Source: Candidatus Doudnabacteria bacterium RIFCSPHIGHO2_01_FULL_46_24 (GTDB lineage: Bacteria > Patescibacteriota > Doudnabacteria > UBA920 > O2-02-FULL-48-8). Taken from it: a stretch of 42,329 nucleotides of DNA. The stretch spans positions 1 through 42,329 of the forward strand of contig MFEL01000007.1 of the NCBI GenBank assembly GCA_001777575.1, written 5' to 3'. This document shows positions 4,602-37,530 of the stretch, in pieces (the stretch's first letter is position 1; each line of letters starts with the position of its first letter). The notes below the pieces were generated by a model. That model worked only from the letters and a program-made list of their open reading frames with translations. It was not told where the DNA came from and did not search any database. A program made the position numbers and the translations under genes.

Positions 4602-4784
4602 ATGAAGAAATGGCTGGCGGTGGGTCTGGGCATTGGAGTTGTGGCCGGCGGAATCTTTTTTGCGGCCAGAACATGGCAGTGGCTGGCGGCGAAGATCAGA
4701 AGGCCCTGGGACGAGGATTACGTTTCCGAAGAAACCCTATTCCGGCTGCGGCTATTGGACGATGATAAGCGCCGCGATATCTGA
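4602..4784 (+). CDS. Small single-TM protein
   Basis: SD AGGAGG; MKKWLAVGLGIGVVAGGIFF. Confidence 0.65.
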   Translation: MKKWLAVGLGIGVVAGGIFFAARTWQWLAAKIRRPWDEDYVSEETLFRLRLLDDDKRRDI

Positions 4785-4926
4785 AGGGCAGGATTTGCAA
4801 TTTAAGTCCTGTCCTTGCTCGTTGGGGCGATTTTTGTTAAAGTATTGAAGCAAAAATAGAGATTTAGCGTTTTGGTGCGGGGTCACCTGACCCAGAAGTA
4901 GAATTTTTATAATCTGCCTTGCTGAT

Positions 4927-4993
4927 GGGCGCGTAGCTCAGGCGGTTATCCCAGTAGTAGATGCTTCACATCACTACGGGACAGGGAGCGCTA
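4927..4993 (+). pseudogene. 5' half of a tRNA gene interrupted by a palindromic element
   Basis: Removing 4949-4985 restores GGGCGCGTAGCTCAGGCGGTTA|GAGCGCTA exactly. Confidence 0.75.
4949..4985 (-). repeat. CCTG-tailed REP-like palindrome
   Basis: TCCCAGTAGT...ACTACGGGA-CAGG hairpin with no target duplication. Confidence 0.7.
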
Positions 4994-5033
4994 CCCCGCA
5001 CCTGCTATAATTTATCAATTATTCCTTGCTGTT

Positions 5034-5110
5034 GGGCGACTAGCTCAGGTGGTTAGAGCGCGTCACTGATAATGACGAGGTCGATGGTTCGAGTCCATCG
5101 TCGCCCACCA
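5034..5110 (+). tRNA. tRNA-Ile(GAU)
   Basis: Complete cloverleaf, anticodon loop CTGATAA, encoded CCA; extended -10 TGCTATAAT at 5003-5011. Confidence 0.97.
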
Positions 5111-5130
5111 GCAGGGCATAATTATAGGGC

Positions 5131-5222
5131 AGCGCGCCTGCCCCGTACCAAACGCGTAGCGTTTTGGTGCGGGGTCACTGATAATGACGAGGTCGATGGT
5201 TCGAGTCCATCGTCGCCCACCA
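5131..5222 (+). pseudogene. Duplicated 3' part of tRNA-Ile interrupted by a palindromic element
   Basis: 5131-5136 plus 5175-5222 are identical to 5057-5110; the insert 5137-5174 is CCTG-CCCCGTACCAAA...TTTGGTGCGGGG. Confidence 0.85.
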
Positions 5223-5240
5223 AAATCGCAAAGCGATTTT

Positions 5241-5270
5241 GCCTCGAGCGAGCGTAGCGAGTCGAGAGGC
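5241..5270. repeat. REP-like palindrome left of the GIY-YIG gene (inverted partner at about 5458-5497)
   Basis: GCCTCGAGCGAGCGTAGCGAGTCGAGAGGC; its reverse complement resembles CCCCTCGGCTCG...CTCGCTTGGGG on the other side. Confidence 0.6.
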
Positions 5271-5275
5271 TAAAG

Positions 5276-5483
5276 ATGTGGTATTTTTACATAGCAAGGT
5301 GCATTGATAAAAGTTTATATTGCGGTATTAGCAGTAACACCTTGAACCGTATTATTCGCCATAATAATCGCCGAGGCGCAAAATGGTTTACGAAGCATGG
5401 AAGCACAAATCAAGCGTTGGTCGAGAATAAAAAAAGAAAAATTAATTAACGGAGAATACCCCTCGGCTCGACTGAAGGCTTAG
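5276..5483 (+). pseudogene. GIY-YIG nuclease (YhbQ/UPF0213-like), internally deleted and frameshifted
   Basis: MWYFYIARCIDKSLYCGIS...RIIRHN...GAKW, then EAQIKRWSRIKKEKLI in another frame from 5400. Confidence 0.8.
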
Positions 5484-5517
5484 TCTCGCTTGGGGTAAAA
5501 ATTTTTTCAAAATTTTT

Positions 5518-5757
5518 ATGAGATTTGTCTGGGGAATGGTTTGGGTAGTGATAGGGTTTTTGCTAATTAGATACAATTACCTGCTGGTGGGATTTTTTGG
5601 CCATGTGCCGTGGGCCGAACAGCACATTGGTGGTGGGGGGACATACACACTTTACAAAATCGTCGGAGTCATCGTCATTATCCTCGGCATGCTGTACGCC
5701 TTCAATGCTGTTGGCTTCCTTACCGGCCCAGCCGGCACCCTGTTTCCTTCGCAATAA
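5518..5757 (+). CDS. Small two-TM membrane protein
   Basis: Two hydrophobic segments around WAEQHIGGGGTY. Confidence 0.75.
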   Translation: MRFVWGMVWVVIGFLLIRYNYLLVGFFGHVPWAEQHIGGGGTYTLYKIVGVIVIILGMLYAFNAVGFLTGPAGTLFPSQ

Positions 5758-5763
5758 TTACTC

Positions 5764-6088
5764 GGGCCATTAGCATAGTGGTAGTGCACCCGGCCGCGCC
5801 CCGTAGTCAACCGTAGGTTGTACTATCGGGGTTTGCACCCCGTACTAAATTTTTGATATTTGTTTTGTTGGGCCGTTAGCTCATTTGGTAGAGCGCCACA
5901 TTTGCAATGTGGAGGTGACCGGTTCGAGCCCGGTACGGTCCACCAGGATAAGAATCAAAAATTAGTACGGGGCAAGTCCGGCGGGTGCGAGTTCGATTCT
6001 CGCACGGTCCACCAGGATAAGTGATTTTCAAAAAATTAGTACGGGGCAAGTCCGGTGGGTGCGAGTTCGATTCTCCCATGCTCCACCA
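5764..6088 (+). pseudogene. Disrupted outer tRNA-Ala(UGC): 5' half 5764-5793, loop remnant 5832-5837, two 3' halves 5977-6014 and 6051-6088
   Basis: Removing the palindromic inserts gives a cloverleaf with G3.U70, loop TTTGCAT, T-loop TTCGATT and ACCA. Confidence 0.7.
5870..5945 (+). tRNA. tRNA-Ala(UGC)
   Basis: Complete cloverleaf, G3.U70 pair, anticodon loop TTTGCAA, encoded CCA. Confidence 0.97.
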
Positions 6089-6145
6089 GAATTCAGCATA
6101 GATTTGAGAATCGCCGGCAAGGCGATTTTTTGATATGATTAGATC

Positions 6146-7066
6146 ATGGATACTCAAGAATATATTTGTGAGACTTGTGGAGGAAATCATCCCACCGATG
6201 CACATCAAGACAATCTTGAAAATCGTCCGGAAGTCTCCATAGATCGGTTACTATCGGATACTCCTGAATCTCGACCAGCTGAACAAAAAAGAGAGTTTTC
6301 TGTTGAAATTAAGGGACAAAAATTCGATTTTTTAGAAATCCAATCGGTTGAATCTTCAGATACCTTGCTTATACATCTTCCCGGGTTCGGGGAAGACGCC
6401 GAGCAATATGCCGAGCCCATGCACGTCTTAATGGAAAAGAGCTACCGTACCGTCGCCTTGAAAAGATACGGGGAAGTATTTTCGAGAGAACTCTTAGTAG
6501 AGGCGCTGGGACAAGTAATTCAATCAAGTGGAAAACAAAATACAGTTTTTCATGGAGATTCTTTTGGCGCGGCTGTTGTATACGACTTGATTAGTAACCC
6601 TGCCGATCGTGAATTTCTAAAAAGAAACAACGTAGTGGGTGCCATTTTAGAAGCACCTTTCTTGGATAAAAATCATCTTAAAGGCAAAGCACGATTAATT
6701 CCAGACGAAGTACTTATACGAGGAAGTATGCTGTTTGATAAAGTCAGGAATCTACGGTCCTTAACACCGCGACAGGACATGGTGGAGTTATCGCCTTCTG
6801 AAAAAAAGAGCATAATAAGGGAGGCGTTGCGAGAGAAAAAAGGCGAAAGAAAAATTGAGGTGCCAATTCACGTTGTTTTTGTTGAAGATGAGAGTCTGTC
6901 TGATAATGAGAAAATTATGAAGACTTTGCAGAGTCAAGGGCAGGAAGTTAGTTCCATTACGGTCATGAGCGCTGATGACAATAGACATCATATTGCAGAT
7001 GGGCAATATGAAGATATGTGGAGAGAAGAAAAAGAAGCGATAGACGTTTTCGTGAAGCCAGTTTAG
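6146..7066 (+). CDS. Alpha/beta-hydrolase-fold protein with an N-terminal CxxCxxxHxxxxH motif
   Basis: LIHLPGFG oxyanion region, GDSFG nucleophile elbow, and a late His (RHHI). Confidence 0.75.
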   Translation: MDTQEYICETCGGNHPTDAHQDNLENRPEVSIDRLLSDTPESRPAEQKREFSVEIKGQKFDFLEIQSVESSDTLLIHLPGFGEDAEQYAEPMHVLMEKSYRTVALKRYGEVFSRELLVEALGQVIQSSGKQNTVFHGDSFGAAVVYDLISNPADREFLKRNNVVGAILEAPFLDKNHLKGKARLIPDEVLIRGSMLFDKVRNLRSLTPRQDMVELSPSEKKSIIREALREKKGERKIEVPIHVVFVEDESLSDNEKIMKTLQSQGQEVSSITVMSADDNRHHIADGQYEDMWREEKEAIDVFVKPV

Positions 7067-7090
7067 CGCTAAAGCCAAAGCAGTTTTCCA

Positions 7091-7121
7091 CCTCAACTTC
7101 GCTGAAGCTACGTCGGGCAGG
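7091..7121 (-). repeat. CCTG-tailed REP-like palindrome
   Basis: Minus strand reads CCTG-CCCGACGTAGCTTCAGCGAAGTTGAGG. Confidence 0.5.
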
Positions 7122-7225
7122 CTGATCAGTTCTGCTCCATCAAAGTTGTTTGGTAATTTTATTATCTTAAAACCCCCGATCATAAACTCGGGGGTTTTCG
7201 TAAGGCCAGGTACTAGAAATTTGAC

Positions 7226-7609
7226 TTAGAATACTCCGTATTTGTTGCGCACGGCCCACATGTCGCTTTCGGAAATTTTGTTTTGCTGCAGGAGGTTTTG
7301 AAGTTTAGTCTTAATTTCACTTTTGGTTATCCCTTGTCCGCCAATGCTTTGTTTGAAAGCTTCAGCCACGTGCCAGCGCGCGTTGGGGCTTAGCGATGCA
7401 GTTTTGCCGCTTTTCAAATCTTGCTCGACGTGGTAGCCGAAACCGCTTTTGAACATTGACTCATCATGGTAGGCGCCGGCGCGCAAATCCAATTTTTTCG
7501 GCCCGCTTGGCTGGTTTGGCATACTTGGCTTCATCGCCATCCTCGAAGGCGGAGCGCCGAAACTCGGCTTACCCATCGCCGTTTTCCAGACTTCGTTTAG
7601 TAATCCCAT
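7226..7609 (-). CDS. Hypothetical protein
   Basis: 127-aa ORF with an AT-rich upstream region and a hairpin downstream; no family recognised. Confidence 0.65.
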   Translation of the reverse strand: MGLLNEVWKTAMGKPSFGAPPSRMAMKPSMPNQPSGPKKLDLRAGAYHDESMFKSGFGYHVEQDLKSGKTASLSPNARWHVAEAFKQSIGGQGITKSEIKTKLQNLLQQNKISESDMWAVRNKYGVF

Positions 7610-7683
7610 ATTTTTGTTATTGTTTCCTTTTTGGATTATTTCTATATATAATTATAGCATAATTTAGTAAAAATTTCAATAGC

Positions 7684-8403
7684 ATGATTGTGAAAGCCAT
7701 TAGGACAAGAATTTTTTTGGAAGGCGAGAACCTGGTGCGTTTTATAACTAAGTACGTCCCGAAACTTCCTGACAGATCGATTTTGGTCGTGACTTCCAAA
7801 ATTGTCGCCCTGGCGGAAAAAAGGACGGCCAAATATGAAGGGCGGGCCGCGAAAGAAAAATTGATTCGCGCCGAAAGCGAATGGGCCATCCGCACCAAGT
7901 ACGTGTTTGCCACGCTCAAAGACGGGGCATTGGTGGCCAGCGCCGGCATCGATGAATCAAATGCCAACGGCAAGTTAATCATGCTGCCCAAGGACAGCAT
8001 GAGAACGGCTCAATATCTCCGCCGCAGATTGATGAAGGCGCATAGGCTAAATAAATTAGGAATTTTGATAACTGACAGCCGCGTGGCTCCGCTGCGCACG
8101 GGGGTCTTGGGCATCGCCATGGGTTATGCGGGATTCGGAGCGCTTCGCGATTACCGAGGAACAAAGGATATTTTTGGGCGCAAACTCAAGTACACTCAAA
8201 CCAATGTCGCTGATGGCTTGGCTACTGCCGCGACACTGGTCATGGGCGAAGGCAAGGAACAGACTCCGATAGCGGTGATTAAAAATGCTCCCGTTCAGTT
8301 CAAGAATAAGGTTATGAAGCACGAACTTCGTATTGATGTTAGGGATGACATGTACGGACCCCTGTTCAAATCTTTCCCAACCAGGGCGGGGAGAAAAAGT
8401 TGA
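7684..8403 (+). CDS. CofE-like gamma-glutamyl ligase, paralog 1
   Basis: VVTSKIVA, SAGIDESN, ITDS, PLRTG, and LVMGEG.EQTP motifs. Confidence 0.9.
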   Translation: MIVKAIRTRIFLEGENLVRFITKYVPKLPDRSILVVTSKIVALAEKRTAKYEGRAAKEKLIRAESEWAIRTKYVFATLKDGALVASAGIDESNANGKLIMLPKDSMRTAQYLRRRLMKAHRLNKLGILITDSRVAPLRTGVLGIAMGYAGFGALRDYRGTKDIFGRKLKYTQTNVADGLATAATLVMGEGKEQTPIAVIKNAPVQFKNKVMKHELRIDVRDDMYGPLFKSFPTRAGRKS

Positions 8404-8471
8404 CGTCGAATTGAATATTCATTATAATTTTGGAGTAGTTGAGGTGGAAAACTCTCAGAAATTCAAATAAA

Positions 8472-9542
8472 ATGCTATTTGGCAAACCCAAAAGTCAGTT
8501 AGGTGTCGATATCGGCACTTCCAACATCAAAATCGTTCAGTTGCGGCCCAAAGATAACAAATTCGTGTTGGAAACTTACGGGACCGTCAACGTAGCATAC
8601 CAGCTGTCTAATAAAGACAGCATCAGCTCCATAACCCAAACCGCTCAGCTGCTTAAGAATTTGCTCCAGAAATCGGGAGTGACCACCCACAAAGTCATTG
8701 CCTCCCTGCCCAACAGCGTGGTTTTTACGTCCGTCATCGAGATGCCCAAAATTCCGGAGGATGAACTGGGCACGGCCATTGAATTTGAAGCCAAAAAGTA
8801 CGTGCCACTGCCGCTTGAGGAAGTCGCGCTGTCCTGGAGTGTGATAGAAGAGCGGACAAAAAAAATCACCAAAGACACCAAAGACACCAATTTGGGGTCA
8901 CCGACCGGTAACACCAAGACCAAGGTGCTGCTGACCGCAGTACCGACCGCGGTCGTCGACAATTACATCAAGGTTTTTCACGAAGCGGGGCTGGAGCCGG
9001 AAGCTTTGGAAATCGAAGCGCTGTCGCTTATCCGCTCTCTTGTCGGCGAGGATTTGAACACGATCGTGCTGATTGACGTCGGGGCCAAGAATACAAGCAT
9101 CAATTTGGTGGACAACGGATACTTAAGGCTTTCCAAAAATTTGACTGTTGGCGGCGATACAGTAACCACCTCGATCGCCCAAAGCTTGTCCGTGAATTTC
9201 GCCCGCGCCGAGCAATTCAAAAAAGATTTCGGATTAACCAGCCAAAACCAGCAGATTCCCCAAGTCATGCGCCCAATTTTGGACATCATCAAAAATGAAA
9301 CCGTGCAGCTTATCAATTTGTTTGAAAGCCGAGGTGAGAAAATCGACAAAGTTTTGCTCTCCGGCGGCGGGGCCAAGCTTCCCAATTTAAGCGAATATTT
9401 TTCCACGGTCGGCAAGCCGGTCTCCCTGGCCGCCCCCTGGTCCAATGTGCTCTACCCACCGGAACTCAAAGGGTTAGTTGAACCATTAGGCCTCAACCTC
9501 GCCGTAGCCGCCGGCTTGGCCATGCGACACAGCGGAGATTAA
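8472..9542 (+). CDS. pilM: Type IV pilus assembly protein PilM
   Basis: Actin-like motifs GVDIGTSNIK, IDVGA and LSGGGAKL; FEAKKYVP. Confidence 0.93.
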   Translation: MLFGKPKSQLGVDIGTSNIKIVQLRPKDNKFVLETYGTVNVAYQLSNKDSISSITQTAQLLKNLLQKSGVTTHKVIASLPNSVVFTSVIEMPKIPEDELGTAIEFEAKKYVPLPLEEVALSWSVIEERTKKITKDTKDTNLGSPTGNTKTKVLLTAVPTAVVDNYIKVFHEAGLEPEALEIEALSLIRSLVGEDLNTIVLIDVGAKNTSINLVDNGYLRLSKNLTVGGDTVTTSIAQSLSVNFARAEQFKKDFGLTSQNQQIPQVMRPILDIIKNETVQLINLFESRGEKIDKVLLSGGGAKLPNLSEYFSTVGKPVSLAAPWSNVLYPPELKGLVEPLGLNLAVAAGLAMRHSGD

Positions 9543-36847: not shown

Positions 36848-37150
36848 ATGAAAATACAACATATTGCTAAGACCAACGAAAAAGGCCAAATTGTCATCCC
36901 CAAGGATTTAAGAGACGAATTAGGAATTAGTGATAAAGTTTCTTTACACTTAGTCAAAAAAGGCCCGGGTATTTACATTTACCCTGTAAGCGAAGTTATA
37001 GGCGAATTTGACACTGTTAATTCTTATCTTGCCATTTTAGAAAAAACTCAAGGCAGTTGGGGTCCCGAAACTGTGGAAGAAAAAAGGAGGGAAAAAGCTC
37101 AAAAAAAAATGGAACAAAAAGCGGCAAGATTGGGTAAACAACAATGGTAA
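36848..37150 (+). CDS. vapB: AbrB/MazE-type antitoxin
   Basis: KGQIVIPKDLRDELGI. Confidence 0.88.
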   Translation: MKIQHIAKTNEKGQIVIPKDLRDELGISDKVSLHLVKKGPGIYIYPVSEVIGEFDTVNSYLAILEKTQGSWGPETVEEKRREKAQKKMEQKAARLGKQQW

Positions 37151-37530
37151 TTCTAGATACTAACGTAATCATTGACCATCTTAGACAAGAAAAGGGTCAA
37201 GAGACTTTGCTAAAACGTCTTATTCGAAACAATCTTCAAGAAGATTTGGCAATTTCAATAATATCTATTCAAGAATTATACAGAGGTCAAAGCACTAAGG
37301 ATTCGGAAAAAGAAAATAATATATTGACAACAGTCAGCGCTTTAAAAATTTTGTCTTATTCTTACGAGGCTGCGGAGCTCGCCGGCAAGTTAGCACGCGA
37401 CAGTAAGGGGACTATTGAGTTTGCCGATGCGGCGATTGCGGCCACAGCCTTGGTTAATAATGGCAGTTTGGCGACCTTAAACAAAAAAGACTTCGTCCAA
37501 ATCCCGAATTTGGAATTGCTAGATATTTGA
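37144..37530 (+). CDS. vapC: PIN-domain toxin
   Basis: ILDTNVIIDHL, SIQEL, DAAIAATA, TLNKKDF. Confidence 0.93.
   Translation: MVILDTNVIIDHLRQEKGQETLLKRLIRNNLQEDLAISIISIQELYRGQSTKDSEKENNILTTVSALKILSYSYEAAELAGKLARDSKGTIEFADAAIAATALVNNGSLATLNKKDFVQIPNLELLDI

Follow-up and report, generated by a model that had tools for sequence, protein, structure and literature searches.

The tRNA cluster of the window (the whole 42,329-nt stretch of DNA analysed here) was probably shaped by non-autonomous tagged palindromes that act at DNA level and resemble REP elements or MITEs, with a cargo-bearing form that replaces the tRNA gene it splits. We put the probability of this reading at roughly 55%. The inserts are hairpins that enter tRNA sequences precisely, in both orientations and without target duplication, and they recur in many genomes. 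The original prediction of a non-autonomous, one-side-tagged hairpin family with precise entry into tRNA genes in either orientation is thus borne out and extends to other genomes. The main feature of the region was absent from that prediction: the interrupted genes are redundant, decaying outer copies around an intact tRNA. The hairpins and tRNA pieces of the window are described below on the forward (+) strand.

In the proposed mechanism, a single loose family of short G+C-rich hairpins would share a CCC...GGG-type foot and, in about half of its members, a one-sided tag of four bases, which is CAGG or CAAG where it stands 3' and CCTG or CTTG in flipped elements. The simple form comprises hairpins of 20-60 nt (E1, E2, E3 and 7092-7121 in the window). 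The cargo form, to which E4 and the tRNA-Ile cassette (about 4992-5130) belong, measures 140-220 nt and has a complete tRNA gene at its tip, the leader and trailer of which make up the long arms. The cargo hairpin would enter a loop of a resident tRNA gene for the same amino acid, most often the anticodon loop, splitting that gene exactly and supplying a working tRNA in its stead. The split gene, then dispensable, would take up simple hairpins in its D loop, anticodon loop and T loop and decay; wherever it still shares long identical stretches with the cargo, partial re-homogenisation between the two may occur. Repeated rounds would produce stacks, as at 5977-6088, where one tRNA-Ala 3' half follows another. 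Together with the origin of the cargo form, we infer a trans-acting enzyme that would recognise folded single-stranded DNA and attack the loops of other folded DNA.

Three simple hairpins of 37-38 nt, a length within the 20-40 nt of short REP-like imperfect palindromes, interrupt tRNA sequences in the window. E1 (4949-4985; -9.3 kcal/mol with DNA parameters, z -4.5, 0 of 200 shuffles as good) lies in the D loop of an outer tRNA-Ile copy and has a 3' CAGG tail, while E2 (5137-5174; -15.0 kcal/mol, z -3.2) interrupts the anticodon stem on its 5' strand and has its CCTG tail at the 5' end, placing the two in opposite orientations. E3 (5794-5831; -11.4 kcal/mol, z -2.6, 4 of 200 shuffles as good) sits at the anticodon stem/loop junction of an outer tRNA-Ala copy, with no clear CCTG or CAGG tail. 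All three have feet of the form CCC(N)GTA...TAC(N)GGG. The window contains 8 copies of the heptamer CCCCGTA where 3.4 would be expected (5 of the 8 within 5141-6046), and GTAG is found only within some stems (E1, E3), the end tag being CAGG/CAAG or its flipped counterpart CCTG/CTTG. In-silico removal of E1-E3 and of two larger inserts leaves no target duplication and loses no base, and the flanks joined by coordinates give tRNA-Ile(GAT) and tRNA-Ala(TGC) in ARAGORN, with a junction ambiguity of 1 nt at E2 and 2 nt at E3. As predicted for excision at 4949 and 5137, the flanks of E1 and E2 correspond letter for letter to the intact tRNA-Ile; the predicted lack of target duplication likewise holds for both tRNAs. 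Inverted ends without a duplication are found at E1, E2, E3 and E4, a combination other than the terminal inverted repeats plus target duplication of DDE MITEs. Only two tRNAs are called in the window (ARAGORN, Rfam), both uninterrupted. Of the five palindromes with shared arms that had been proposed, E1-E3 fold as such, with CCC...GGG-type feet, whereas 5838-5976 encloses an intact tRNA-Ala and 6015-6050 is a right arm only.

The outer, old tRNA-Ile copy starts with its leader (4899-4926) and a first piece containing the acceptor strand, D stem and D loop (4927-4948, sequence positions 1-22), which E1 separates from a second piece, GAGCGC (4986-4991). The stretch 4899-4948 is 78% identical to 5006-5055, the leader and 5' part of the intact tRNA-Ile. 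The outer acceptor strand reads GGGCGCG and the D loop GGCGG, versus GGGCGAC and GGTGG in the intact gene, and 4927-4948 mispairs with the 3' copy 5175-5222 at two acceptor positions. Within this copy lies the cassette, with a left side (4992-5033) consisting of the CCCCGCACC foot, an A+T-rich arm and a leader, the intact tRNA-Ile(GAU) as cargo (5034-5110; ARAGORN; Rfam tRNA, 69 bits), and a trailer and right arm followed by the repeated outer-gene piece AGCGCG (5111-5136). The leader-trailer duplex has a z of -4.7; 5017-5040 pairs with 5100-5123 (24 nt, 88%), and 4994-5002 is the exact complement of 5166-5174. The boundary of the cassette is blurred because GAGCGC and AGCGCG overlap on its two sides. 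After E2, the outer gene resumes with its 3' part, from the anticodon stem to CCA (5175-5222), and 5174-5222 is identical to 5062-5110 at 49/49 positions. This 49-nt direct repeat bounds only 63 nt, with no integrase in the window, a layout other than that of an integrase island. Hairpins are also present at the site of E1 in L033, where foot and tail are those of E1, and at the site of E2 in L013 and L034. An imperfect direct repeat brackets the cassette, and a relic at 4865-4886 (an E2-type right arm plus the first tRNA-Ile anticodon-stem bases, 22/22 identical to 5157-5178) lies upstream of the outer copy, where it fits a simple nest poorly. The bracketing repeat and the misplaced relic indicate that tandem duplication and deletion also shaped the region.

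The outer tRNA-Ala is of a 74-nt type, and begins with a first piece (5764-5793) that is followed by E3, a second piece from the anticodon loop (TTTGCA, 5832-5837) and E4 (5838-5976), inserted one base 3' of the anticodon. Instead of the simple palindrome expected at 5838-5976, E4 is a cargo hairpin (fold z -6.45) with long inverted arms of 16-20 nt (5838-5853 and 5957-5972), a CAAG tail and, at its tip, an intact tRNA-Ala(UGC) (5870-5945; leader-trailer duplex z -9.35). The cargo is of a 76-nt type, with 97% identity to the tRNA-Ala of L004 and 67% to the outer gene, and homologous E4-like arms are present in L032 and L011. The first outer 3' half (5977-6014) is followed by 6015-6050, which had also been taken for a palindrome. 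This segment does not fold (z -0.5). It is the remnant of an older cargo element that has lost its left arm, and consists only of a trailer, a right arm homologous to those of E4 and L032, and a CAAG tail. A degenerate second 3' half (6051-6088) is 95% identical to the first after joining, and 6031-6092 is 92% identical to 5957-6018. With E3 and E4 removed, the outer tRNA-Ala is 91-92% identical to the intact 74-nt tRNA-Ala of L030, L022 and L002, has the same anticodon loop and lies in a gene order common to these three loci. The comparison of filled and empty sites proposed earlier thus reveals no duplication.

Cargo tRNAs lie within stems, cargo alleles can differ from their targets, and outer copies decay. 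The comparison rests on 34 loci (L001-L034), most of them titled as Patescibacteria lineages, from one scan of a genome collection with a tRNA-Ile pattern, which was chosen as the handle over the hydrolase at 6146-7066, with its only 14 relatives. Since all loci were picked via this one pattern, frequencies are biased, and a tRNA-Ile interrupted inside the pattern is undetectable. An intact tRNA is flanked by partial tRNA copies in 19 of the 34 loci, or 17 once L026, where the match is 12 nt long and on the opposite strand, and L027, where the fragment adjoins a run of N, are discounted. Upstream and downstream fragments have complementary breakpoints in L001, L006, L022, L032 (tRNA-Ala) and L033, and nearly complementary ones, with a few bases overlapping or missing, in L013 (tRNA-Phe), L024 and L028, which points to one insertion event per nest. 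Among 86 intact tRNAs, a leader-trailer stem (z below -3) accompanies 17 of the 21 with a nearby self-fragment (exact, at least 13 nt) versus 10 of the 65 without one (odds ratio 23, Fisher p 6.9e-8). Spliced-alignment chaining gave many spurious 6-nt chains, and only chains with long exact pieces were used. No interrupted tRNA copy was seen without an intact one at most a few hundred bases away. In L020 an outer gene of a 76-nt type surrounds a 77-nt cargo, and in L022 and L032 the acceptor stems of the outer copies are 2-3 base pairs off those of the inner copy, yet fully paired. Outer copies have decayed by deletion and substitution in L009, L011 and L032 (tRNA-Ile). Many outer pieces are 100% identical to the cargo, which requires either very recent events or gene conversion.

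Foot, loop and tag are conserved among the elements. Feet of the form CCCGCCTGCC...GGCGGGCAGG bound the cargo in L001, L006 and L022; an intergenic simple hairpin in L022 has the same left foot as the cargo and a right foot ending TCGGGCAGG, and a D-loop hairpin in L001 has cargo-like feet, the left one base shorter and the right ending TCGGGCAGG. In this comparison of three loci, cargo-hairpin feet equal simple-hairpin feet. The cargo inserts of L033, L024 and L028 have no CCC/GGG foot. By manual tally, about 15 of about 28 bounded inserts have one of the four tags at an end, where our own arithmetic gives a chance rate of roughly 3% per insert; about half have no tag. A crude scan for foot-plus-tag hairpins returned 29 raw hits, 24 of them within 300 nt of a tRNA, versus 0-7 hits per block-shuffled control, a rough indication only, as many hits are one hairpin counted twice or with alternative left arms, and E1 and E3 are missed. 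Within the window there is no near-identical pair of independent copies, and hence no sign of recent transposition.

The conserved loop defines a subfamily of 7 copies, from five loci plus the window, in which 97.6% of stem cells are paired, 4 of the 6 stem pairs change on both sides, and the covariation score was reached in 0 of 500 shuffles. One copy is reversed relative to its tRNA, indicating that the sequence is conserved as DNA. In L028, hairpins of the same subfamily occupy the same D-loop site in both tRNA-Ile and tRNA-Phe. Hairpins are present in D and T loops as well as anticodon loops, and family members are also found in intergenic DNA. The predicted preference for tRNA genes may partly reflect where insertions are tolerated, since the hairpins sit in redundant, decaying copies.

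A different reading would take the inserts as RNA-level introns, or the nests as split genes of the archaeal type, with functional multi-intron outer tRNA genes, hairpins excised from the transcript and the intact tRNA released from the largest intron. Insert removal restores the tRNA exactly, the inserts occupy loop positions (including that one base 3' of the tRNA-Ala anticodon), 100% identity between outer pieces and the intact gene is frequent, complementary acceptor strands are kept in the outer copies of L022 and L032, the hairpin stems covary, and the tRNA cluster region folds as RNA far better than shuffles (z -5.8 and -6.9), all of which speaks for introns. Nevertheless, one and the same conserved hairpin is found pointing either way with respect to the tRNA, some family members are intergenic, and an intact tRNA accompanies each interrupted copy seen. 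The outer copies decay, and the outer tRNA-Ile halves of the window mispair at two acceptor positions. Inspection of the predicted folds revealed no bulge-helix-bulge, and a sensitive Rfam search of 4780-6160 and 13 loci for a ribozyme, intron or other RNA family returned only tRNA, rRNA and sub-threshold noise. Neither the functional interrupted gene nor the fixed orientation of archaeal-type introns is found here, and we know of no protein-dependent tRNA splicing pathway in bacteria. We consider RNA-level introns very unlikely, and disfavour the bolder variant of our own reading in which some interrupted copies are processed into working tRNAs, which, if it occurred, would be the first protein-dependent tRNA splicing in bacteria. 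When bulge-helix-bulge motifs at anticodon-loop junctions were tried by hand on the predicted folds, one could be drawn for one tRNA-Ile junction class; this arrangement fails at D-loop sites and for flipped elements, and was rejected.

Two further readings were weighed. The partial tRNA copies could be scars of recombinase integration at att sites, or of the homology-assisted integration of foreign DNA that the cell had taken up, with the hairpins as recombinase arm sites or junction filler and not mobile units. The 49-nt exact repeat begins in the anticodon stem and ends with CCA, as the identity block of a tRNA integration site typically does; L026 has a serine recombinase ORF, the window contains type IV pilus genes, and differing tRNA alleles occur within one locus. 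Against this, only 63 nt (window) and 59 nt (L034) lie between the repeats, 5' as well as 3' fragments occur with complementary breakpoints, hairpins also occupy D loops, T loops and intergenic positions, different genomes share conserved loops, feet and tags, and recombinases are limited to that single ORF among 132 flanking ones, with no integrase in the window, making integration scars a highly doubtful explanation. Alternatively, there may be no mobility at all, with local tandem duplication and deletion at breakage-prone tRNA loops and with the hairpins as conserved structural elements of the host, processing or termination signals that lie at the junctions by coincidence. We regard this too as unlikely, even though outer and inner leaders are homologous (78% in the window, and likewise in L006 and L028), successive trailers are homologous, the relics 4813-4831 and 4865-4886 are tandem and not nested, an intact gene is followed in tandem by an interrupted copy in L007, L015 and L016, and the hairpins of L019 follow tRNA ends. 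Duplication alone leaves unexplained the exact interruption of tRNAs by unrelated hairpins at several loops, the shared D-loop site in tRNA-Ile and tRNA-Phe of L028, and cargo alleles unlike their target, while occurrence in both orientations argues against a host function at transcript level.

If tagged palindromes moved as DNA, the enzyme would have to be supplied in trans. The adjacent GIY-YIG nuclease, suggested originally as a possible mobiliser, is rejected: its gene (5276-5449) is a truncated pseudogene with the C-terminal part in another frame, GIY-YIG accounts for only 1 of 132 ORFs flanking the loci, and relatives with the same architecture lack it. No Y1/HUH transposase family member and no RAYT gene was seen among the 52 ORFs of the window or the 132 of the loci, and no integrase among the former. 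HUH-type chemistry of the REP/RAYT or IS200/IS605 kind is one candidate for the mobility.

IS200/IS605 elements have hairpin ends, require no terminal inverted repeats, cause no target duplication and insert in either orientation; their two end hairpins are different, and insertion occurs next to a fixed target of 4-5 bases. The elements described here resemble small derivatives of this family in their hairpin ends, lack of target duplication and either orientation. They differ in that each is a single hairpin whose own two ends pair, and in that the flanks share no motif: tag-oriented flanks end TTA, GCA, CTC, TGA, GCT, AGA, CGT and others, and no conserved target tetranucleotide was found beside the elements when the flanks of inserts were read by eye. 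Integrative elements with a tRNA gene as target span kilobases and encode an integrase, and what they replace, through homologous att sites, is limited to the 3' part of the gene. Here too the target is a tRNA gene, incoming DNA restores its function and a displaced partial copy remains, but the unit is 140-220 nt long, has a complete tRNA as its only gene and splits its target non-homologously.

REP palindromes of the GTAG and CGTC classes carry this tag at one end only, and some REP families are reported to be inserted within other palindromes (PMC3733652). Like REP/REPIN sequences mobilised by RAYT, the present elements include imperfect palindromes 20-40 nt long that are tagged by four bases at one end, form single or larger hairpins, are non-coding and would depend on an enzyme supplied in trans (PMC3733652). 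Unlike them, they have CAGG/CAAG as tag, not GTAG or CGTC, have stems that covary around a conserved loop where REP stems are conserved in sequence, and lie inside tRNA sequences, some with a whole tRNA gene. Rickettsia palindromic elements also insert inside genes, and do so in frame in protein genes that stay functional (PMC3733652), whereas the interrupted tRNA copies here appear dead. Transposing tRNA introns and split tRNA genes are described in Thermoproteales archaea (PMC10714607). Their introns are similar in that several short inserts occupy one tRNA gene at canonical and non-canonical positions, and in that related inserts occur in different tRNA genes; they are cut from RNA at bulge-helix-bulge motifs and the interrupted gene works, whereas the inserts described here lie in a bacterial host, vary in orientation and are always accompanied by an intact copy of the gene. 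In a literature search conducted mostly at abstract level, no published account was found of tRNA genes that, in these bacteria, are nested or interrupted by hairpins.

Tentatively, and at somewhat less than even odds, Patescibacteria may harbour a previously undescribed kind of selfish element, a gene-less foldback cassette whose sole cargo is a complete tRNA gene. Such a cassette would enter a loop of the resident gene that encodes the same tRNA, destroy this gene and take its place. Serial nesting would then drive the turnover of tRNA genes and pass alleles from one lineage to another, and simple tagged hairpins would be the cargo-free form. If true, tRNA genes in a very large bacterial radiation would be repeatedly replaced by tiny hairpin cassettes and not simply inherited, which would provide a route for tRNA alleles between lineages and account for the partial copies by which tRNA annotation of these genomes is confused. 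The elements would represent a new tag class of palindromic repeats, and archaeal interrupted tRNA genes would have a counterpart in bacteria. The arrival of inserts in tRNA genes would become amenable to study at DNA level, because the loci offer filled, empty and decaying sites for direct comparison.

Outside the tRNA cluster, the 42-kb window contains one weak copy only, the extragenic 7092-7121, an intergenic member of the conserved-loop subfamily with a weak 6-bp stem, a 14-nt conserved loop and a CAGG tail. It forms 5 of the 6 stem pairs and scores 41.3 bits on the covariance model of the subfamily, of which it is itself one of the 7 training rows. The looser CCTG-tailed hairpin originally drawn at 7091-7121 is retained through this match and its 5/6 pairs, but not as a fold, as 7091-7121 alone does not fold with DNA parameters (z +1.6). 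In L019, by comparison, 8 hairpin copies occur in 2.3 kb, and hairpins directly follow tRNA 3' ends.

Only two tRNA genes are called in the window by ARAGORN and Rfam, tRNA-Ile(GAU) at 5034-5110 and tRNA-Ala(UGC) at 5870-5945, and both lie in the region where the original prediction had seen palindromes inserted into tRNA genes. Each is bracketed by pieces of a second copy of the same tRNA. The 5' piece of the outer tRNA-Ile, from its 5' end to the D loop (4927-4948), is followed by a simple hairpin insert (E1, 4949-4985), the sequence GAGCGC and a cassette of ~180 nt in which the intact gene lies between a complementary leader and trailer (inverted repeat I2). AGCGCG and a second hairpin insert (E2, 5137-5174) then precede the outer 3' part (5174-5222), which is identical to the intact gene at 49 of 49 positions (direct repeat D3). 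The first piece of the outer tRNA-Ala (5764-5793) is followed by a third simple insert (E3, 5794-5831), TTTGCA and a cargo hairpin holding the intact gene (E4, 5838-5976), and then come the outer 3' half (5977-6014), another right arm with its tail and a second 3' half that is degenerate (6051-6088). The interrupted genes are spare copies around working ones, an arrangement that the original prediction had not seen.

When the pieces are joined by their coordinates, ARAGORN calls tRNA-Ile(GAT) and tRNA-Ala(TGC). The joined outer tRNA-Ala is of the 74-nt type, with 91-92% identity and the same seven-base anticodon loop as the intact tRNA-Ala of three loci in other genomes (L030, L022 and L002). 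The gene order tRNA-Ile, small membrane protein, tRNA-Ala, PilM is common to the window (5518-9542), L002, L012, L020 and L023. Parts of this order recur in L004 and L030, where some of the genes lie on the opposite strand. In L022 the first three genes are present, with no PilM within the stretch examined. L002, L022 and L030 have the gene order around tRNA-Ala in common. This conservation made possible an empty-site comparison at tRNA-Ala (against L030, L022 and L002), which reveals neither duplication nor loss. Exact restoration of the tRNA without target duplication, as predicted, holds for E1, E2, E3 and E4 on the basis of the joined pieces and the empty-site comparison.

E1, E2 and E3 fold as DNA hairpins above shuffled sequences (z -4.5, -3.2 and -2.6, respectively) and have CCC(N)GTA...TAC(N)GGG feet in common. 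E1 ends in CAGG and E2 starts with CCTG within one tRNA-like sequence, so the two are inserted in opposite orientations. The foot motif CCCCGTA occurs eight times in the window (3.4 expected), with five of the eight within 5141-6046. Three further stretches had been listed, one of them (7091-7121) as a looser hairpin. E4 encloses an intact tRNA-Ala between inverted arms of 16-20 nt, with a CAAG tail (z -6.45 for the whole), 6015-6050 does not fold (z -0.5) and lacks a left arm, having only a trailer, a right arm and a tail, and 7091-7121 does not fold under DNA parameters (z +1.6) but is nonetheless a member of a conserved-loop subfamily (7092-7121). Another hairpin (4786-4814), directly after an ORF ending at 4784, has arms GGGCAGG...CCTGTCC, which are the family foot motifs in reversed order. 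After it comes a third, truncated relic of a leader and tRNA start (4813-4831), 76% identical to 4917-4933 (direct repeat D20).

In its essentials the observation holds, and the pattern reaches far outside the window. A single scan of a genome collection with a 37-base pattern from the tRNA-Ile 3' part gave 34 loci (~4 kb per genome), a biased sample since all were found through an uninterrupted tRNA-Ile 3' part. Most are titled Patescibacteria (Doudna-, Kerfeld-, Komeili-, Uhr-, Nomura-, Kaiser- and Buchananbacteria, and Saccharibacteria), while eight are titled Gammaproteobacteria and one Verrucomicrobiia (titles as given). Partial copies flank an intact tRNA in 19 of the 34 loci, a count that includes two discounted cases, L026 (an opposite-strand match of 12 nt) and L027 (a fragment adjoining a run of N). 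The L027 fragment, a 3' piece of tRNA-Val at ~330-350 directly after the N run, may reflect scaffolding and not a real partial copy. L034 has the window's tRNA-Ile architecture with other hairpin sequences, and its 49-nt 3' copy again matches its own intact gene throughout; the acceptor stem of that intact gene is not the same as in the window. L033 carries a hairpin at the D-loop site of E1, with the same foot and tail, as well as a CCTG-tagged anticodon-loop hairpin, and the E2 site is occupied by a CCTG-tagged hairpin in L013 and by a hairpin without that exact tag in L034. An insert with the layout CCCGCCTGCC ... leader, intact tRNA, trailer ... GGCGGGCAGG separates anticodon bases 2 and 3 of the outer tRNA-Ile in L001, L006 and L022. 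Further affected tRNAs are tRNA-Gly, -Phe, -Val and -Ala.

Among the simple hairpins, the conserved-loop subfamily has a 6-bp stem, a conserved 14-nt loop and a C-A-(A/G)-G tail. Copies are located in the D loop of the outer tRNA-Ile (L013 and L028) and of the outer tRNA-Gly (L034), reversed in the anticodon loop of the outer tRNA-Ile (L028), in intergenic DNA (two in L032) and at 7092-7121 of the window. The stem covaries across seven rows (97.6% of cells paired, four of six pairs changed on both sides, a score reached by 0 of 500 shuffles). A covariance model built from these rows gives 14 more, weaker matches at E up to 1, including the D-loop hairpins of L034 and L028-Phe, the T-loop hairpin of L032 and a repeat in L019. 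The latter is present in eight copies in 2.3 kb (85-531, 753-777, 1937-1976 and 2228-2252), lying directly after tRNA 3' ends and starting in the CCA end, with several copies ending in CAGG and three forming a tandem array of 30-nt period; L019 is the only case in which dispersal within a single genome is shown. By manual tally, ~15 of ~28 bounded inserts have CAGG, CAAG, CCTG or CTTG at one end. The predicted non-autonomous family of tagged hairpins is supported.

Of greater interest are the cargo form and the turnover of tRNA genes by nesting which it implies. L032 has an insert at the tRNA-Ala position of E4 with homologous arms, one arm pair of which has both partners substituted (T:A to C:G). 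In L011, a tRNA-Ala of the window's 76-nt type precedes the same trailer and right arm. The window's cargo tRNA-Ala shares 97% identity with that of L004 and only 67% with the gene it interrupts, L020 has a split 76-nt-type tRNA-Ala with the 77-nt type inside, and in L022 and L032 the outer and inner acceptor stems differ at two or three base pairs, each stem being fully paired. The cargo therefore need not copy its target.

Pairing between leader and trailer was assessed for 86 intact tRNAs from the loci and the window, with a stem defined by z below -3 and a nearby exact self-fragment by a length of at least 13 nt. A stem is present at 17 of 21 tRNAs with such a fragment, compared with 10 of 65 without (odds ratio 23, p 6.9e-8), and several of these ten have diverged or short-piece outer copies (the window Ala, L013 Ile and L007 Ile). 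Ordinary tRNA genes lack the stem (e.g. tRNA-Ala of L002, L012, L022, L023 and L030), so the mark of the inserted unit is a long hairpin with an intact tRNA at its tip. Feet closely similar to those of the cargo in L001, L006 and L022 surround an intergenic simple hairpin of L022 and, one base shorter on the left, a D-loop hairpin of L001; the cargo form thus resembles a simple hairpin whose loop holds a tRNA gene. The gene might enter the loop by capture between two inverted feet, by read-through mobilisation of an adjacent tRNA, or by a unit of tRNA plus stem inserting into a resident hairpin's loop. The discriminator base and CCA of cargo tRNAs often pair with the four bases that precede the tRNA, so that the acceptor stem continues into the leader-trailer helix (L001, L006, L013, L022, L024, L028, L033, L034 and window 5017-5123). 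The helix sequences are completely different between these loci, with the pairing retained.

The evidence favours insertion at the DNA level, into copies that are, or become, dispensable, over removal of the hairpins from RNA. The conserved loop is found in both orientations relative to the tRNA (E1 and E2 are also flipped), members of the family also lie in intergenic DNA, and no match to ribozyme or intron families was obtained. The outer copies include all stages of decay (L009, L011 and the Ile copy of L032), and in the window the 5' and 3' pieces of the outer tRNA-Ile mispair at two acceptor positions. Decay alone does not account for the frequent 100% identity between outer pieces and cargo, which needs recent events or gene conversion; conversion is hinted at in the window, where the short 5' pieces differ from the cargo and the long 3' one does not. 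Tandem duplication and deletion also acted, as indicated by two relics (4813-4831 and 4865-4886), an imperfect direct repeat that flanks the tRNA-Ile cassette and the tandem arrangements in L007, L015 and L016.

The interpretation originally placed on the hairpins is half right. No Y1/HUH family member is present among the 52 window ORFs or the 132 ORFs flanking the loci, and the element flanks have no target motif in common. The suggested HUH chemistry is thus an analogy, drawn from the hairpin, the one-sided tag, the absence of duplication and the use of either orientation, and not a result. The GIY-YIG ORF beside tRNA-Ile, proposed as a possible mobiliser, is not supported in that role, being truncated, with its C-terminal part in a different frame from the N-terminal part, and only one of the 132 flanking ORFs is GIY-YIG. 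This remnant (5223-5500), flanked by its own G+C-rich imperfect palindromes, sits between the tRNA-Ile cluster and the small membrane-protein gene. In L002, L012, L020, L022 and L023 that gene directly follows tRNA-Ile, so the remnant looks separately inserted.

Integrative elements that target tRNA genes bring their own replacement for the displaced part of the gene. Cargo hairpins work somewhat alike, but are without an integrase, a homologous att site or other cargo. The closest known kind to the hairpin family is that of tagged palindromic repeats. REPs are reported to have a GTAG or CGTC tag at one end, to be often linked to RAYT transposases and to lie sometimes inside other palindromes (PMC3733652). 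Unlike REPs as described there, the hairpin family has another tag and covarying stems around a conserved loop, and it sits in tRNA sequences, with one form carrying a whole tRNA gene. The transposing tRNA introns of Thermoproteales (PMC10714607) resemble the hairpin inserts in outcome only. The indexed open-access papers searched yielded no description of such hairpin-interrupted or nested tRNA genes.

The first bases of the window lie within a bacterial 16S rRNA gene and its last within a 23S rRNA gene, in the 5' part. Ordinary genes fill the ~40 kb in between, among them type IV pilus genes and genes for tryptophan synthase and NAD-dependent DNA ligase. For one neighbouring protein, the nearest named relative carries the label Candidatus Paceibacterota. 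The Ile and Ala spacer tRNAs are 4 kb away from the 16S gene and 35 kb away from the 23S gene (976-41152). The 3' region of the 16S rRNA (1-976) is broken by an insert coding for a LAGLIDADG endonuclease (ORF 257-844; Pfam LAGLIDADG_2, E 6e-29); the Rfam match ends at 191, and the 16S 3' end with the anti-Shine-Dalgarno sequence is near 961-976. A MazE-like antitoxin gene followed by an overlapping PIN-domain gene (36848-37530) is an ordinary toxin-antitoxin pair.
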